32,000 nt of DNA, from positions 180,001-212,000 of the forward strand of contig JBHLKY010000001.1 of NCBI GenBank assembly GCA_048886185.1, given 5' to 3'. The notes beneath the pieces were generated by a model. It searched no databases. It was given only the letters and a program-made list of their open reading frames with translations, and was not told the DNA's origin. Below are positions 2,627 to 20,207 of the stretch, in pieces. Origin of the DNA: Candidatus Hermodarchaeota archaeon. Lineage in GTDB: Archaea > Asgardarchaeota > Heimdallarchaeia > Hodarchaeales > Hodarchaeaceae. The position numbers were made by a program, and so were the translations under genes. Every line of letters starts with the position of its first letter. The stretch's first letter is position 1.

Positions 2627-5524
2627 TCAATTTGTGGATTTAATTGAGGGTTCTGTAGGTGCTTTAGTTCCTGTTAAATCAAAAATTTCACGCAAATAAG
2701 TACCCGTTGGACATTCAAAATGAGCGATCTCTTCGGGTGTTCCTGTGGCAAGTACTTCCCCTCCATTGTCCCCACCTTCAGGTCCTAATTCTATAATCCA
2801 ATCTGAAGTTTTTATGACATCTAAATTATGTTCTATAACGACAACTGTATTACCTTCTTCAACTAACCTCTGAAGAACAGCTAACAAATAAGATATATCA
2901 TGGGTTGAAAGACCAGTAGTAGGTTCATCTAAAATATAGAAGGTTTTACCTGTCGATCTCTTAGAAAGTTCTTTGGACAATTTAACCCGTTGAGCTTCTC
3001 CTCCTGATAGTGTTGTTGCAGGTTGACCTAGTTGGATGTAACTTAAGCCAACATCAACGATGGTTTGTAATTTATGCTGTATTTTTGGAATATTAGAAAA
3101 GAAGTCAAGGGATTCCTCCACAGTCATGTTCAAGACATCAGAGATGTTTTTTCCTTTATAACGGATCTCTAGTGTCTCTGTGTTATACCGTTTTCCTTTA
3201 CAATCATCACATATAATCCAAACATCCGGTAGAAATGATAGTTCAATCTTGATCTGTCCTCCACCTCTACATGTCTCACAACGTCCCCCCTTCACATTAA
3301 AGCTAAAACGTCCCTGTTTATATCCTCTTATTTTCGCTTCTTTTGTTTGAGCAAATAACGCGCGTATATTATCCCAAACTCCTGTATAAGTTGCAGGATT
3401 GGATCGTGGTGTCCTTCCGATTGGGCTCTGATCAATGTTGATAACTTTATCGACGAATTCTAATCCTTCGAAACTTTCATGTTTACCAACTTTCTCTCGA
3501 GATCTATGAAGATATTTCATAAGCCCTGGATATAGAGTGTCATTCATCAATGTGGATTTTCCTGATCCAGAGACTCCTGTAATGCAAATAAAGCGGCCTA
3601 AAGGAAAACTGACATCAATATTTTTTAGATTGTTTTCCCCAGCTCTTATAATTTTGATACTTTTACCATTGCCAGTCTTCCTATTCTCTGGGATCTTAAT
3701 CTTTTTTCTCCCAGAGAGGTAGGCTCCTGTTGTGGAAGTAGGACAATTCATAATATCTTTAGGCGTTCCCTGAACAACTAATGTACCTCCATGAATTCCT
3801 GGGCCCGGGCCTAAATCTATAACATGGTCAGCTGCTAAAATCGTTTGGTGATCGTGCTCAACAGCAAGGACAGTATTTCCTATAGCCTGAAGGTTCTTCA
3901 AAGAGTCCAATAACTTTTGTTGATCACGAGTGTGTAATCCGATTGAAGGTTCATCTAAAACATAAGTAACACCTACTAAAGCAGAACCAATTTGAGTGGC
4001 TAAACGAATTCTTTGGGATTCCCCTCCTGAGAGAGTCATCGAAGTTCGGTCTAATGTCAAGTAGGGTAATCCTACTGATATGAGGAAATCTAATCGGGAT
4101 TCAATTTCTCTTAAAATATTAGAAGCAATCTTCGAATGAGTCTTTGAAAGTTGAGAACGGAGTTCTCTTATCCAACTTAGGCAATTTTCAACAGTCATTT
4201 CTGTGATTTCAATGATATTTTTATTCTGAATCGTCACGGCTAGCGATTCTGGTTTTAGACGTTTTCCATTACAGCTGGTACAGAAGTCTTGTCTCATAAA
4301 TCGTTCATAATAAGAACGTGCGGTCTCACTTTTGGTTTCTTTGTATCTTCGCCAGATCGTATTTACTGTACCTTCGTGGCGATGTTGTTTGGACTCCCAA
4401 CGACTTTTTTCTGATTCAAAAACAACATTCATTTTCGTTTTTGAGCCATAGAGTAAACTCTCTATCACTTCAGACGGAAGATCTTTTAAAGGTGTATCAA
4501 CTGAGAAATCGTTCCATGATTTTGCTAGAGAAGTATAATAGGCAAATCGCCATGTGCCAGGTGTCAATGGTTTGTCCATAAATCCTCCCTCACGAAATGA
4601 AAGATTCGGATTAGTTATGATTAAACTCGGGTCAATGTTTAAGGTAGTGCCTAATCCCTGACATTCGGGACATGATCCCCAAGGGGAATTAAAACTGAAA
4701 TTTCTAGGTTTTAACTCTTCGTAGGAAAGCTCACAGTCAGGACATGCATAATTTTCACTGAAGAAAAAATCCTCTCCAACTTCAGAGTTATCAATATTTA
4801 TCCTAGTTATTATCACTACTCCTTCTCCAAGTTCGAGAGCTTGTTCTAATGCTTCAATCAAACGATTACGTATGTTAGGTTTAATAACAAGTCGATCGAT
4901 TATTGTTTCTATGGAGTGAAGCTTGTACCGATCAAGCTGAGGAGGATCAGCTAGATCATATTCAATCCCATCAACCCTTACGCGAACAAAACCCAATTCT
5001 GTAAGACGATCCCACTGGGTGTGATGTGTTCCTTTCTTACCTCGAATAATTGGAGCTAGAATCTTAATACGTGTTCCTTCTTTCCATGTAAGTAAAGTTC
5101 TGACAATAGATTGGGGAGTTTGAATTTTTAATTCTTTATTGCAGGAGATACAGTGAGGAATTCCGATGTTAGCAAATAATAAGCGTAAGTAATCAAAAAT
5201 TTCAGTTTGAGTACCAACTGTTGATCGTGGATTCTTACTAGTTGTTTTTTGTTCGATCGAAACAGCTGGAGACAACCCTTCAATAAGCTCTACGTCTGGT
5301 TTTTGCATTCTTTCAAGAAATTGACGGGCATATGCACTTAATGACTCTACATAGCGACGTTGTCCTTCTGCAAAGATCACATCAAACGCTAAGCTTGATT
5401 TTCCTGAACCACTGACCCCAGTAATTACTACAAATTGATTACGAGGGATGGATACTGTTAAATTCCGAAGGTTGTGGACTTTAGCATTTTGTACATAGAT
5501 TACCTCTTTTTCTTTATTTGACAT
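2627..5524 (-). CDS. uvrA: Excinuclease ABC subunit A
   Basis: NAKVHNLRNL, two GVSGSGKS Walker A motifs, EGQRRYVESLS, LSGGESQRIRLA, LDEPSIGLH, PIGRTPRSNPATY, FSFNVKGGRCETC, LSGGEAQRVKL and CxxC zinc sites. Full length (965 aa). Confidence 0.98.
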   Translation of the reverse strand: MSNKEKEVIYVQNAKVHNLRNLTVSIPRNQFVVITGVSGSGKSSLAFDVIFAEGQRRYVESLSAYARQFLERMQKPDVELIEGLSPAVSIEQKTTSKNPRSTVGTQTEIFDYLRLLFANIGIPHCISCNKELKIQTPQSIVRTLLTWKEGTRIKILAPIIRGKKGTHHTQWDRLTELGFVRVRVDGIEYDLADPPQLDRYKLHSIETIIDRLVIKPNIRNRLIEALEQALELGEGVVIITRINIDNSEVGEDFFFSENYACPDCELSYEELKPRNFSFNSPWGSCPECQGLGTTLNIDPSLIITNPNLSFREGGFMDKPLTPGTWRFAYYTSLAKSWNDFSVDTPLKDLPSEVIESLLYGSKTKMNVVFESEKSRWESKQHRHEGTVNTIWRRYKETKSETARSYYERFMRQDFCTSCNGKRLKPESLAVTIQNKNIIEITEMTVENCLSWIRELRSQLSKTHSKIASNILREIESRLDFLISVGLPYLTLDRTSMTLSGGESQRIRLATQIGSALVGVTYVLDEPSIGLHTRDQQKLLDSLKNLQAIGNTVLAVEHDHQTILAADHVIDLGPGPGIHGGTLVVQGTPKDIMNCPTSTTGAYLSGRKKIKIPENRKTGNGKSIKIIRAGENNLKNIDVSFPLGRFICITGVSGSGKSTLMNDTLYPGLMKYLHRSREKVGKHESFEGLEFVDKVINIDQSPIGRTPRSNPATYTGVWDNIRALFAQTKEAKIRGYKQGRFSFNVKGGRCETCRGGGQIKIELSFLPDVWIICDDCKGKRYNTETLEIRYKGKNISDVLNMTVEESLDFFSNIPKIQHKLQTIVDVGLSYIQLGQPATTLSGGEAQRVKLSKELSKRSTGKTFYILDEPTTGLSTHDISYLLAVLQRLVEEGNTVVVIEHNLDVIKTSDWIIELGPEGGDNGGEVLATGTPEEIAHFECPTGTYLREIFDLTGTKAPTEPSIKSTN

Positions 5525-6032
5525 GACAAGATATTCCTATTTGGGATAAATTTTTAAATTTACAGAAACTGGTAAAGCATTAGAAGAAGTAATATGGGCT
5601 AATCTCGACTATACTAGCCTTTATCGATTTTATTGAAAGAAAGAAGGTCTTCAATTAAATCTTACTTTGATATAAAGGGCATAAGTGTTGATGATTATAA
5701 AACCTAATCACACTAAAATCAAAAAAATATACACATTAAAGAAAGATTAGTTCAATAGTATTTTTCTATTTTCGTTTTAATTCACTATATGTTTTTGTGA
5801 TACATTCTTCTTGGGAAAAGAGTAAATTATTTGTCATAATTGAACAAAAATATGTTTGAAGTTCGTTGGAATCTGATAAAAATTAGATAACTATATTTTA
5901 TATTAGGTTATATTTTGGTTAGCTTTTTATAAGGAGTCACAGGTATTATGATCTAGGCCAAAGGTTTAATTTTTTTAAAATCGTTTAGAATTCATATTAT
6001 TCTTGATGAAAATACAAAATTTGGGATAATAC

Positions 6033-14713: not shown

Positions 14714-15733
14714 GTGATGAAGATGGAAACTATTGATGAAGATTTAATAAGCTGTCTTACGATTCCAGGTCAATCAGGCTTTGAAACACCTATTCGTAAG
14801 TTTCTTGTGGAGAAATTAGTTAAATATGGAGAAATCGCACGTGATAACTTGGGATCAATTATCTGCAAAATTGAAGGAAAACATAATCAAGGATTAAAAT
14901 GGTTCATCGGTGCCCATATGGACACTTGTGGCTTTTTAGTGCATAGTATTAGTAATGGGTTAGTAAAATGCCTTAATTTTGGATATCAAGATATTCAAGC
15001 CTGTCATCTTCAGCCTGTGGCCATTTCAACGAAAAATGGATATGTCGATGGATTGATGTATTCTAAACAAGAGGATAAAAGTACAATCAGCTTTAAAATT
15101 GATGTTGGGCTTCGATCTTCAAAGGAAGTGAGTGCTTTAGGAATTCAAGCTGGCGATCCTGTTCACTTTACAATCCCTCCCTTTCTTGTTGGTAATCCAT
15201 CACAGAAAGTATTATGTTCCCCCCGATTAGATAATCGCTTGGGAATTTTCGAATTACTCCTCTTGGCAGACTATTTAAACAAAGATCCCCCTCTAGATGA
15301 TGTTTTTTTAGTAGCTACTGTTGAAGAAGAGGTAGGAGCTCGTGGTGCTAAAACTGCTGCCCACAAAATTCAACCAGATCTAGCACTTATTTTAGACGTC
15401 ACTTATGACGACTACCCTGTTACGATAGGTGATGGACCTGTGATTACGATATCAGACAAATCTTCACTCTTATCGACTCATGTGCGGGATTATTTGCTTG
15501 ATTTAGCTAAGAAAAATAAGCTTCCTATTCAAACTGAAGTCTGGAATATCGGAGGTACCGATGCAGGTTCTGTAAGGGGATTTGGTGTACCAACCATACC
15601 TATTCTCACTGCTACAAAAAACAATCATACTCCAGTAGAAATGGCAAGTATTGATGACTGTTATTCTGTCGTACAGTTATGTCTGTTAATCATCAAGCAT
15701 AGTAAAGAAATACAAAATGCTTTTCAAGAGTGA
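14714..15733 (+). CDS. M42 family metallopeptidase (TET aminopeptidase-like)
   Basis: PGQSGFE, GAHMD, LDNRLG, TVEEEVGARGA, LDVT, GGTDA, NHTPVE. All expected metal ligands are present. Confidence 0.9.
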   Translation: MMKMETIDEDLISCLTIPGQSGFETPIRKFLVEKLVKYGEIARDNLGSIICKIEGKHNQGLKWFIGAHMDTCGFLVHSISNGLVKCLNFGYQDIQACHLQPVAISTKNGYVDGLMYSKQEDKSTISFKIDVGLRSSKEVSALGIQAGDPVHFTIPPFLVGNPSQKVLCSPRLDNRLGIFELLLLADYLNKDPPLDDVFLVATVEEEVGARGAKTAAHKIQPDLALILDVTYDDYPVTIGDGPVITISDKSSLLSTHVRDYLLDLAKKNKLPIQTEVWNIGGTDAGSVRGFGVPTIPILTATKNNHTPVEMASIDDCYSVVQLCLLIIKHSKEIQNAFQE

Positions 15734-16842: not shown

Positions 16843-16884
16843 TACTGATCGCTCGTTCTCGCGACTTGATGAAGAAATAGAAAT

Positions 16885-17427
16885 TCATGGTTCCAATTGC
16901 TGTAAATATTTGATATACCATTTTCCAAGGATTTCCCAAATTTTCGCGACATTTTCTCCTGTACGTTCATCAACAGTGATATAGTTGATATTTGATTTAT
17001 GTTTTCGATTCATCTCGTTTGAATAATTATGAATTTCTTCATCAGTAATGTATTCACTAGTCTTCACCCTTCTATGGATGTTTATTCCTACAATTACTAT
17101 TGGAATTGATTTTTCCAAGCCATTATAAAGCCAAATCTCATTTAACCATGAGGAAAGGTTATGGAAGGTTTCTAAGTCAAGAACATCAAATACAATAATT
17201 GCTCCAAGTGCTCCATAATAATATCTTCTTCTTTCAACTCTGAACATGGGGTCAAGTGATAATTGCCAAACTTGGAATTGAAAGGTGTTACCACCTATAT
17301 TTATTATTTTAAAAGCAAAATCTCCCTCTATTAGTGTAAAATCGCTCTTATATACCTCCCCATAAAATTTTAGGATTTCTGCTTTCTTGATATTACCAAT
17401 CATAATTATTTTCATGGGGAAAGACAT
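16885..17427 (-). CDS. Rab-like small GTPase fold protein with degenerate G1/G3/G4/G5 motifs (pseudo-GTPase)
   Basis: MKIIMIG, IEGDFAFKII, FQFQVW, FRVERRRYYYGALGAIIVFDV, TFHNLSSWLNEI, IPIVIVG, TGENV match the Rab scaffold. GxxxxGKS/T, DxxG, NKxD and SAK are all absent. Confidence 0.8.
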   Translation of the reverse strand: MSFPMKIIMIGNIKKAEILKFYGEVYKSDFTLIEGDFAFKIINIGGNTFQFQVWQLSLDPMFRVERRRYYYGALGAIIVFDVLDLETFHNLSSWLNEIWLYNGLEKSIPIVIVGINIHRRVKTSEYITDEEIHNYSNEMNRKHKSNINYITVDERTGENVAKIWEILGKWYIKYLQQLEP

Positions 17428-17882: not shown

Positions 17883-18872
17883 CTATAATCCATAGAACAT
17901 TTCAGTTGCTTTTATGGTCAAATTTTCAGAAAGCAATCGTTTCATTAGAATTGCTCCATAGGTTTGTAAGTGGTTACCTACTTTATAATGAGCTTTTGGA
18001 CGTTTAGCTTCGATGATTTTTTCAATTTTTTTCGAAACTATTATCGGAGGAGGACTTATGATAAGATTTTGGATAATTGTTCTCCAAGCCTTTTTTGCTT
18101 CCTTAAAATATGGAGATTCTGATGATACAGGGATTAGGTCTATCATTTCTGCAATATCTTCGGATGAAATATCCATTTCACAATGATGAAGCTTAGTTGT
18201 ATTTGCATCAAATGGGGTGTTAATATCCCCTGGAAGAAGCGATGACACTCGAATATTAAAAGGTTTTAATTCTGTTCTAAGACTTTCTGTTAATCTTAGT
18301 ATTGCAGCTTTACTTGCCGAGTAATGCCCTTGGAAAGGAATACATATGACCCCTGCAAGTGAGGAGGTATTAATAATCTGGCCTGATTCTCGTGATCGCA
18401 TTCTTGGTATTATCGCTTGCAGGATACGAACTAAACCAAAAAAATTGACTTCAAATTGGTATTGTGCTTTATCTAAAGACAATTCTTCGACAGGACCAAA
18501 AAATCCATTCCCTGCATTATTAATCAATGTATCAATTTCTTCTGAGGATTCTAGGTTCTGTATTGCTTGCTTTACAGATTCAGTTTTACTCATGTCCATA
18601 GATATATATTGAATTTCTTCTATAATCCTATCTAAATTGTCAAGTATACTGACAGGAGCTCGTATTTTTCCAGGTTCAATTTTTGTTTTTGCTTTGTTTG
18701 TGTACTTAAATTTCGTATGATCTATAAGAAATCGATTTTTTAATAGATTTTTATTAATTTCTTCTGGTTTTCGGGAGGTTCCAATTATTTTATAACCCTT
18801 TGAAGCCAAATAAATAGCGTGTGATAATCCCAGACCTGAAGATGCACCAGTTATCAAAATTCTTTTAGACAC
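17883..18872 (-). CDS. Short-chain dehydrogenase/reductase (classical, probably NADP(H)-preferring) with an internal insertion
   Basis: TGASSGLG, GTSRK, LINNAG, NTSSLAG, YSASK; GTG start with GGAG SD. Confidence 0.92.
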   Translation of the reverse strand: MSKRILITGASSGLGLSHAIYLASKGYKIIGTSRKPEEINKNLLKNRFLIDHTKFKYTNKAKTKIEPGKIRAPVSILDNLDRIIEEIQYISMDMSKTESVKQAIQNLESSEEIDTLINNAGNGFFGPVEELSLDKAQYQFEVNFFGLVRILQAIIPRMRSRESGQIINTSSLAGVICIPFQGHYSASKAAILRLTESLRTELKPFNIRVSSLLPGDINTPFDANTTKLHHCEMDISSEDIAEMIDLIPVSSESPYFKEAKKAWRTIIQNLIISPPPIIVSKKIEKIIEAKRPKAHYKVGNHLQTYGAILMKRLLSENLTIKATEMFYGL

Positions 18873-18875
18873 TTG

Positions 18876-19772
18876 TCAATCTCCATCTTTTTTTCTGTAG
18901 AAATCAGAGAGATCATATTGTTTCCACGGACGAGTAAAGGGGATATCAGGCAGTTGTTCCTCATGTTGCATTTCTCGTTCAAAGTAATAATAGAGAGAAG
19001 CTTCTCCAACTAAATGCATACCACCTGTAACAGGGATAACTGTTCCAGTTACCCATTCTCCTAAATCAGATACTAAAAACGTGATCACTTTTGCAACATC
19101 TTTAGGTTGACCAAACCGGCCACGAGGAATCTGTCGAATTAATGCTTGTGCTAGATCTGGTAAATCCAACGGTTCTTTCATCAATGGCGTGACAATGGTT
19201 CCTGGACGAATAGCATTTACATTTATACCAAATGGAGCAAACTCTAGAGCTAAAGCACGCGTCAAACCTGAAATACCAGCTTTACTTGTAGCATAAGCAG
19301 CGAGTCCAACAACAGGAATTTCATCATTTATACTCGACACGTTGACAATTCGGCCTTTCACACCTTTCTCGACCATAACACGACAAACAGAATAACACAT
19401 AAGATGCGTTCCTTTTAGATTTGTATTAAGGGTCCAATCCCACTCCTCTTCGATTAAATCTAAATAGCTAGAAAGGCCACCTACCCCTGCACAGTTAACA
19501 AGCACATCTATTGTTTGAAATGTTTGGAGTGTTTCCTCAACCAAGGTTTTTACTTGATCAGATTGCGAAACATCTAATTGGTGAAATAAGCATTCTCTCC
19601 CACTTTTTTCTAAGTTATTTTCTAAATTCTCCCCTAATTCCTCATCTAGATCAGCGATAACTACTTTCATACCAAAGTCAGTAAATTGATTCACAACTGC
19701 AGCCCCAATGCCAGAAGCTCCTCCAGTCACTATTGCAACCTTATTTTTTAATTTTAAGACATCCATTAGCAA
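18876..19772 (-). CDS. Short-chain dehydrogenase/reductase, FabG/glucose-dehydrogenase-like (NAD(H)-preferring); likely start ATG 19766
   Basis: TGGASGIG, acidic IADLD, VNCAG, NVSS, YATSK, NAIRPG, P-x-GRFGQP-x-DVA. Confidence 0.93.
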   Translation of the reverse strand: MLMDVLKLKNKVAIVTGGASGIGAAVVNQFTDFGMKVVIADLDEELGENLENNLEKSGRECLFHQLDVSQSDQVKTLVEETLQTFQTIDVLVNCAGVGGLSSYLDLIEEEWDWTLNTNLKGTHLMCYSVCRVMVEKGVKGRIVNVSSINDEIPVVGLAAYATSKAGISGLTRALALEFAPFGINVNAIRPGTIVTPLMKEPLDLPDLAQALIRQIPRGRFGQPKDVAKVITFLVSDLGEWVTGTVIPVTGGMHLVGEASLYYYFEREMQHEEQLPDIPFTRPWKQYDLSDFYRKKDGD

Positions 19773-20207
19773 TCATTCCTTAATGGTAGACAGGTTGGAA
19801 TAATCACCATGAAATTCTACAGGGATACTAGCAAGAATTTCAATCCACTTAATCGTGCTATCTGAAGTACGTAGAAGCTTGACTAGCCCCCCTTTTTTGA
19901 GTTTAAGCTTTCGCATTGTCAGAGCTTTTGTCGCGCCAAGTTCTTGGCGAAGTATTCTAACCCAGTTTCCATATTTTCCAGTAATTACAAATTCAGTATC
20001 CTTCTCCCCTTCCCATATGTCTTCTATAACCCCATTGTTTTCTCTATATCCAATGCGTATTGTTTCATTAACATTCTTTTTCGGTTCTGGTTCTAAAATG
20101 AAAGTGAAGGATTTAATTCCTTCTCCCCTTGTCATTTCAAGATATTCTTCATTCCCATTAACTCGTTTTTGAATTTCCAATAAATGCTCTTTACTTCCTA
20201 ACATCAT
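19773..20207 (-). CDS. SCP2 sterol/lipid-binding domain protein
   Basis: VNGNEEY, EFVITGKYGNWVRILRQELGATKALTMRKLKLKKGGLVKLLR match the SCP2 pattern (W-x-x-I-L...A-L...KLKL-x-G); SD GGAGG at 20218-20222. Confidence 0.78.
   Translation of the reverse strand: MMLGSKEHLLEIQKRVNGNEEYLEMTRGEGIKSFTFILEPEPKKNVNETIRIGYRENNGVIEDIWEGEKDTEFVITGKYGNWVRILRQELGATKALTMRKLKLKKGGLVKLLRTSDSTIKWIEILASIPVEFHGDYSNLSTIKE

Follow-up and report, generated by a model that had tools for sequence, protein, structure and literature searches.

The window, a stretch of 32,000 nucleotides from a Hodarchaeaceae genome, encodes a 180-aa Rab-like protein (P0001) which, judged by its sequence, belongs to the Ras superfamily in its fold and profile match but is not a GTPase by its motifs. 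It is probably a nucleotide-free binding module of the CENP-M / p190RhoGAP-pG type that arose from an Asgard Rab-like GTPase. Such a protein would neither bind nor hydrolyze GTP in the canonical way and would therefore not switch; its role would be that of a constitutive protein-binding module with a fixed Rab-type switch/interswitch face, either as an adaptor that holds its partners permanently or as a decoy that draws in regulators or effectors of the intact sister GTPase. Action at a membrane would also be possible, given a gene for a membrane protein (TM gene) 3 nt upstream at the end of an SCP2-SDR-SDR-TM row. Within the binding-module reading the decoy version is considered rather unlikely, and the membrane-module version is given about the same low weight. 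Features of the pseudoGTPase class that were seen are a GTPase fold with the nucleotide-binding motifs lost and retention under selection (omega 0.10 at dS 0.70).

A Rab-type fold and the former GTPase motifs

The protein matches the Pfam profile Ras (PF00071) with an E-value of 2.6e-13 and 50.3 bits, above the curated cut-off of 21.6, and the match spans residues 7-166, corresponding to profile positions 2-155 of 162. When its sequence was searched against the PDB with phmmer, 267 chains were matched at E<=0.01. The best 60 of these 267 are all Rab/Ypt/Sec4 proteins or Thor-Rab (E-values of 1e-15 to 3e-14 for the top ones) and include Rab1/Ypt1, Rab4, Sec4, Rab14, Rab2, Rab18, Rab35, Rab11, Rab8 and Rab21 as well as the Thorarchaeota Rab 7EZB.

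A structure predicted with AF2 from 88 sequences, intact relatives included, reached a pLDDT of 92 and a pTM of 0.89 and has the Ras-type order of strands and helices, with the switch I region as its sole uncertain part (pLDDT 68-71). According to this model the protein keeps the six-stranded alpha/beta G-domain fold. Since the alignment of 88 sequences is dominated by working GTPases, the model supports the fold and not the detail of the pocket; from the 15 orthologues alone AF2 gave an unusable model (pLDDT 46). In a Foldseek comparison of the 88-sequence model with the PDB the 50 best matches were all Rabs (TM 0.74-0.80, E about 1e-12). The nearest solved relatives are thus Rabs and not Ras, Rho, Arf or Ran, both among the best 60 phmmer and the best 50 Foldseek matches, in agreement with the Rab-like identity assigned in the original prediction. 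Most of the top Foldseek matches are Rabs in their GTP form, which is not evidence on the pose, as AF2 tends to favour it anyway.

All motif strings quoted in the original prediction are present in the protein, i.e., IGNIKKAEI (residues 10-18), WQLSLDP (54-60), VGINIH (113-118) and VDERTGENV (152-160) for the former nucleotide-binding motifs, and IEGDF (33-37), FQVW (51-54), MFRVER (61-66), YYYGA (69-73) and IVFDV (78-82) for the RabF-type motifs. The HMMER alignment with Rab1 and the MAFFT alignment with intact archaeal relatives agree on a gap of three residues in the P-loop (G-N/D-x-K-K vs G-D-G-x-V-G-K-T), and they pair D-x-x-G-Q (D-L-A-G-Q) with Q-L-S-L-D, N-K-x-D with I-N-I-H and S-A-K with D-E-R. 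Both alignments confirm the loss of G1, G3, G4 and G5. In addition G2 is lost, which had been absent from the earlier list: the threonine of switch I is an isoleucine in the pseudoGTPase when aligned by MAFFT with intact relatives. In consequence none of G1 GxxxxGK[ST], G2 Thr, G3 DxxG, G4 [NT]KxD and G5 SA[KL] is kept. The positions of the remnants and of the neighbouring genes are given in Table 1.

Table 1. Features of the pseudoGTPase gene and its surroundings (window positions; residues refer to the 180-aa protein)
Feature	Position	Strand	Evidence and remarks
Rab-like pseudoGTPase gene (P0001), 180 aa	16885..17427, including stop codon	-	ORF; Pfam Ras; AF2; Foldseek; 17 orthologue clusters
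G1 (P-loop) remnant GNIKKA, residues 11-16	17380..17397	-	3 residues shorter than GxxxxGK[ST]; gap in HMMER and MAFFT alignments
Residues 37-73: interswitch (beta2-beta3), G3 remnant and helix of switch II	17209..17319	-	Column entropy; AF2 secondary structure; contains the counterparts of RabF2-F4 and of the Rab hydrophobic triad
G3 remnant WQLSLDP, residues 54-60, replacing W-D-x-x-G-Q-x	17248..17268	-	Q55, L56 and D59 invariant in 15 orthologues
G4 remnant GINIH, residues 114-118, replacing G-N-K-x-D	17074..17088	-	Alignments of orthologues and relatives
G5 remnant VDERTGEN, residues 152-159, replacing T-S-A-K-T-G-x-N	16951..16974	-	Entropy 0.41; T156, G157 and N159 invariant
4-TM DUF8058-like membrane protein, 142 aa	17431..17859	-	Upstream, co-directional; 3 nt between its end and the start of the pseudoGTPase gene
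SCP2-like gene and two SDR genes	17883..20207	-	Pfam; block with TM gene conserved with or without pseudoGTPase
GNAT acetyltransferase PF12746	15742..16842	-	Pfam E 1.1e-39; 42 nt after the pseudoGTPase stop
M42 peptidase	14714..15733	+	Convergent neighbour in every orthologous locus examined

The proposal that counterparts of all five RabF motifs remain holds largely for F2 to F5 and only loosely for F1. The counterparts of F2, F4 and F5 are close and conserved and that of F3 is partial (F-R-x-E-R), whereas F1 contains an indel among the orthologues and its residues E34 and G35 vary. Motifs of the RabF type are also found in intact Asgard Rab-like relatives in the MAFFT alignment. The protein also retains residues corresponding to the Rab hydrophobic triad (F37/F39, W54 and Y69-71). 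A C-terminal prenylation motif was not found, as the protein ends with ...YLQQLEP right after helix alpha5 and its sequence contains no cysteine at all. Because the prenylation cysteines are absent, the protein would not be classed as a eukaryotic-type Rab.

Orthologues, relatives and the proposed order of motif loss

The orthologues fall into 17 clusters with 57-100% identity, and those that are named carry the labels Hodarchaeota, Heimdallarchaeota or Promethearchaeota, which agrees with the Asgard origin proposed before. The losses of the G motifs are common to all of them. All 15 aligned orthologues share a shortened G1 of the form G-D/N-x-K-K together with Q-L-S-x-D-P, G-I-N-I-x and V-D-E-x-T-G-E-N, and their alignment has 42 invariant columns. 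Because orthologues down to 57% identity carry the same degenerate motifs, recent decay, which the original prediction had named as the point to check in close orthologues, is excluded, and the motif losses are best described as an old, selected change.

When 83 whole genomes of the class were searched, orthologues were detected at 268-344 bits in eight of the 22 species of the window's genus. The scores are bimodal, with a second tier at 140-147 bits that corresponds to an intact paralogue found in almost every species of the genus, carriers of the pseudoGTPase included. The carriers are mostly those nearest to the window's genome by the M42 peptidase (66-77% identity vs 55-63% for the other non-carriers). 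The exception among the non-carriers is G060 with an M42 peptidase identity of 66%, where a 2-hydroxyacid dehydrogenase gene occupies the slot of the pseudoGTPase gene. In G067, whose M42 peptidase is 74% identical, the contig at the corresponding locus (L053; G067:C302:1-3803) begins 171 nt upstream of the GNAT gene. The missing orthologue is probably due to this assembly gap, which would make nine rather than eight of the 22 species carriers.

The window's genome (G000) contains 68 Ras-superfamily ORFs with 74 domain hits in a profile search, about 40 of which ORFs retain G1, G3, G4 and G5. Of the full-length ORFs in the main Rab-like group of these 68, the pseudoGTPase alone lacks all four scored motifs. 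A handful of other low-scoring ORFs of the superfamily in the same genome are degenerate too. Outside the window, Ras-superfamily-like ORFs without G1, G3 and G4 are located at C17:42179-43183, C3:231814-232674, C46:10248-10868, C12:53324-53854, C37:12693-13202 and C9:195638-196249, with motifs such as GSEK--KT/DTAEQ/IEGE, GYPSELKN/DIASQ/FIMK and GHPDELVN. The genome may hold several independent pseudoGTPase lineages.

The nearest intact paralogue in this genome (C2:105688-106233) is 33% identical to the pseudoGTPase and shares its N-terminus MSF-x-MKI, and in almost all genomes of the genus it is the next-best match to the family profile. The paralogue has all G motifs and is near-universal in the genus, whereas the pseudoGTPase has none and a patchy presence there. 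The trees of the two proteins show identical species groupings, and this congruence fits vertical descent. At the locus of the paralogue (L047; C2:100500-111500, paralogue at 5171-5743 on the minus strand) a Roadblock-like gene is found at 3440-4201 on the plus strand, about 1 kb from the paralogue gene. Its 253-aa product gives a weak Roadblock/LC7 match and is a candidate regulator; the pseudoGTPase might mimic its binding or compete for it.

An exhaustive profile search of 1.84 billion representative sequences returned one cluster of the pseudoGTPase family at 286 bits, followed by matches at <=159 bits, several of which are short proteins that likewise have no G motifs. Among the best matches of the family profile are also P0020, P0022, P0029 and P0039 (569-665 aa), which contain three tandem G domains with G1 and G4 intact. 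In the phylogenetic trees the pseudoGTPase family forms a clade (SH-aLRT 97-99), which in the focused tree is joined by P0021, P0023, P0024 and P0027 (SH-aLRT 95). The source of two of these cousins, P0024 and P0027, is a MAG with the label Odinarchaeota. The deletion of three residues in the P-loop was also found by MAFFT in the cousins P0023, P0024, P0027 and P0236. The cousins share VD-x-x-TG-x-N at the former G5, which in the Odin-labelled ones reads V-D-E-x-T-G-E-N. The pseudoGTPase family would thus be part of a wider Asgard clade with a common P-loop deletion.

P0236, a 205-aa protein from a JGI metagenome, is the full-length member of the cluster of P0021. It carries the P-loop deletion, lacks G4 and G5 and contains an insert of ~20 residues after beta5; it retains Y-M-M-T-I-G-A-D-Y and W-D-L-A-G-Q-P-R-F-G-T-V-R-S-V-Y-Y-Y-G, which are near-identical to the intact paralogue. 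This suggests descent from the lineage of the intact paralogue, with the loss of G1, G4 and G5 preceding that of G2 and G3. A clade made up solely of the pseudoGTPase family and the intact paralogue was rejected in the AU test (p 0.012) because the cousins P0021, P0023, P0024 and P0027 are closer, and the family is therefore not the product of a simple recent duplication within the genus. Support for the deep branches is poor in both trees, and the decayed sequences may have been drawn together by long-branch attraction.

Gene neighbourhood, former pocket and selection

The pseudoGTPase gene is the fifth in a co-directional row with the order SCP2-like, SDR, SDR, 4-TM protein, pseudoGTPase and GNAT, toward which the M42 peptidase gene converges. 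The TM gene is located directly upstream of the pseudoGTPase gene in G000, L003, G058, G066 and G056. The spacer is 3 nt in G000, L003 and G058 and 41 nt in G056, and the genes farther upstream of the TM gene differ among the loci, where three different genes are found. In L002, L006 and L015 the SDR+TM block is inverted and one SDR gene lies between the TM gene and the pseudoGTPase gene. In every orthologous locus examined the TM gene is at most 1.2 kb away from the pseudoGTPase gene. From the gene arrangement, co-transcription of the two is very likely; a functional tie between their products is only hypothetical.

The family of the TM protein comprises 67 clusters and has bacterial DUF8058 proteins (PF26247) among its relatives; Pfam gave no match to the 142-aa protein itself. 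Its invariant polar residues Y47, E51, D58, D97, Y107 and N117 are placed in or next to membrane segments. The protein resembles a small membrane enzyme or carrier and is tied to the two SDR genes.

As a special case of the adaptor, the pseudoGTPase could be a peripheral subunit which tethers or regulates the DUF8058-like 4-TM protein or the lipid-type SCP2-SDR-SDR-TM module. The tight spacing to the TM gene, which persists despite three different genes farther upstream, and the proximity within 1.2 kb in all orthologous loci examined speak for such a role. However, all these loci belong to one genus, so that the synteny may reflect relatedness alone, and in L004, L005 and G060 the SCP2-SDR-SDR-TM block occurs with a different gene in place of the pseudoGTPase gene. 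Moreover, SDR and TM genes are inverted away in one lineage, and the cousins have no TM neighbour. We regard such a peripheral subunit as rather unlikely.

No common partner gene was found across the neighbourhoods of the cousins (L007 and L009). In L007:5001-8347 the Odin-labelled P0024 precedes a DUF4332 gene and genes for an ICMT/PEMT-like membrane methyltransferase and a CMAS-like methyltransferase, which are lipid-related. In L009:5001-6799 P0023 is followed by two small-GTPase-like genes, one of which was confirmed as intact Ras-family, and the flanking genes encode proteins of ~2000 aa.

Downstream, the GNAT gene is present in most orthologous loci and absent in L001 and L006. In the window the pseudoGTPase and GNAT genes share a frame across one TGA and 14 codons (16843-16887). 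A split Rab-GNAT fusion is nevertheless unsupported, as the spacers vary (from 12-36 nt in G058 over 42 nt in the window to 69 nt in L003 and L015 and to 74 nt, out of frame, in L002), the GNAT gene is missing in two loci and a fused form was not found: no longer relatives of the pseudoGTPase were detected at E<=1e-10, which is in itself weak evidence.

To describe the conservation within the protein, column entropies were calculated from the orthologue alignment. Compared to a mean of 0.82 for the whole protein, the former G3 (0.38), the former G5 (0.41) and the interswitch beta2-beta3 (0.47) are the best-conserved parts, followed by the switch II helix (0.74) and the former G4 (0.80). The former G1 loop is the least conserved of the former motifs (1.24), though K15 is nearly invariant within this otherwise variable loop. 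The interswitch and switch II face, which was proposed to be kept, is thus indeed among the most conserved parts, but the conservation of beta2-beta3 and switch II is partly that of core residues and need not imply an interaction face. The statement that all nucleotide-binding motifs are lost was correct for the canonical motifs; the pocket itself is not simply lost, since the positions of G3 and G5 carry new conserved motifs. The entropy pattern indicates that the former pocket is under new constraints, i.e., remodelled and not merely eroded, which is consistent with a pocket filled by salt bridges or, as the less probable option, with a new ligand site.

The loss of motifs alone is no proof that a ligand is absent, and K15 together with the conserved former G3 and G5 would also fit such a site. 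The pocket could have been repurposed for a small ligand, such as a non-canonical nucleotide or a phosphate- or lipid-bearing molecule, with K14/K15, Q55, D59 and D153-E154-R155 as candidate residues, and the protein would then be a sensor instead of a ligand-free scaffold. In favour of a sensor are the strong conservation of the positions that replace G3 and G5, the nearly invariant K15 and the lipid-related neighbours both here (SCP2 and two SDRs) and next to one cousin (the ICMT/PEMT-like and CMAS-like methyltransferases). However, the deletion of three residues removed the anion hole of the P-loop, the remnant of G1 is the least conserved of the former motifs, and the residues for base specificity (NKxD and SAK) are all gone. 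The conserved acidic and basic residues could, moreover, just be the pocket-filling salt bridges. A repurposed pocket appears improbable in comparison with the nucleotide-free binding module.

The open reading frame of the pseudoGTPase is intact in all eight carrier genomes and in all 17 clusters. Values of dN/dS, a comparison suggested by the original prediction, were calculated by the method of Nei-Gojobori with an own script. For the least saturated pair, G000 vs G058, the pseudoGTPase showed a dN of 0.072, a dS of 0.70 and an omega of 0.10, compared to a dN of 0.032, a dS of 2.52 and an omega of 0.013 for the intact paralogue. As dS is saturated in most pairs, this is the single reliable omega value for the pseudoGTPase; the remaining pairs gave 0.06-0.19 at saturated dS. 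The intact paralogue, which is 94-99% identical across the genus, has an omega of 0.013-0.021 (about 0.015) in pairs with estimable dS, and that of the neighbouring TM gene is about 0.09-0.11. In most pairs dN of the pseudoGTPase is about 2 to 8 times that of the intact paralogue (59-86% vs 94-99% identity). The pseudoGTPase is clearly constrained by purifying selection, though it evolves faster than its working relative. A functionless, decaying duplicate on its way to a pseudogene could account for this higher dN and for the lack of the gene in most species of the genus, but is very hard to reconcile with the intact frames, an omega of about 0.1, 42 invariant columns, a gene tree congruent with that of the paralogue, and derived motifs common to cousins in another Asgard lineage.

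Comparison with known pseudoGTPases and Rabs

In the literature that was searched, pseudoGTPases are handled as a eukaryotic phenomenon. The search returned no paper that joins 'pseudoGTPase' with 'Asgard' and none that describes archaeal pseudoGTPases; archaea are named in other contexts only. Degenerate forms are not mentioned in the paper on Thor-Rab (PMC10933270). The Asgard Arf survey of Vargova et al. (bioRxiv 10.1101/2024.02.28.582541) left unannotated, rapidly evolving GTPase derivatives for later, and its divergent Asgard Ras-superfamily sequences are neither defined as groups nor treated as pseudoGTPases. The family described here plausibly falls among these divergent sequences. What is new, on the alignments and trees presented above, is an archaeal, Rab-derived pseudoGTPase family with a traceable history of motif loss. 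The result is modest, as divergent Asgard GTPases were noted previously, though unstudied, and the function given here is a proposed one.

A selected, Rab-derived dead GTPase in the archaea closest to eukaryotes would show that the expansion of GTPases in Asgard archaea included derivatives for binding only, and the making of adaptors from switches would then be older than eukaryotes. A wider picture is put forward tentatively, as conceivable but on balance doubtful: Asgard archaea might possess an old, lineage-spanning clade of Rab-derived nucleotide-free pseudoGTPases that arose by stepwise loss (first the P-loop deletion and the loss of G4 and G5, then that of G2 and G3), whose remodelled pocket and fixed face would let them imitate a near-invariant Rab-like switch in a permanently 'on' or 'off' state, at the membrane beside lipid-handling genes. 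If such a clade exists, switch-less adaptors with a GTPase fold predate eukaryotes. The intact paralogue, the half-decayed P0236 and the fully decayed form provide a natural series in which the order of motif loss is testable, and the pseudoGTPase is small and soluble and thus suited to binding assays and crystallography.

The best matches in sequence and fold are Thor-Rab (PDB 7EZB; Tran et al., 2024, PMC10933270), Rab1/Ypt1, Rab4 and Sec4, which have the counterparts of RabF2-F5 and the hydrophobic triad in common with the present protein. Thor-Rab resembles it also in the lack of C-terminal prenylation cysteines. In difference to the pseudoGTPase, in which G1-G5 are lost and the P-loop is three residues shorter, all these Rabs bind GDP/GTP and possess all G motifs.

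CENP-M and the domains pG1/pG2 of p190RhoGAP are nucleotide-free pseudoGTPases that were described as scaffold or interaction domains (PMC10211241). Their nucleotide binding was measured, whereas the nucleotide-free state of the present protein is deduced from its motifs. CENP-M is part of a kinetochore complex, and pG1/pG2 each form one domain within a large protein, whereas the protein described here is stand-alone, Rab-derived and archaeal. The likeness lies in the fold class, and no specific sequence relationship is claimed: like CENP-M and pG1/pG2, the present protein combines the small-GTPase fold with degenerate G motifs and is conserved despite the loss of catalysis.
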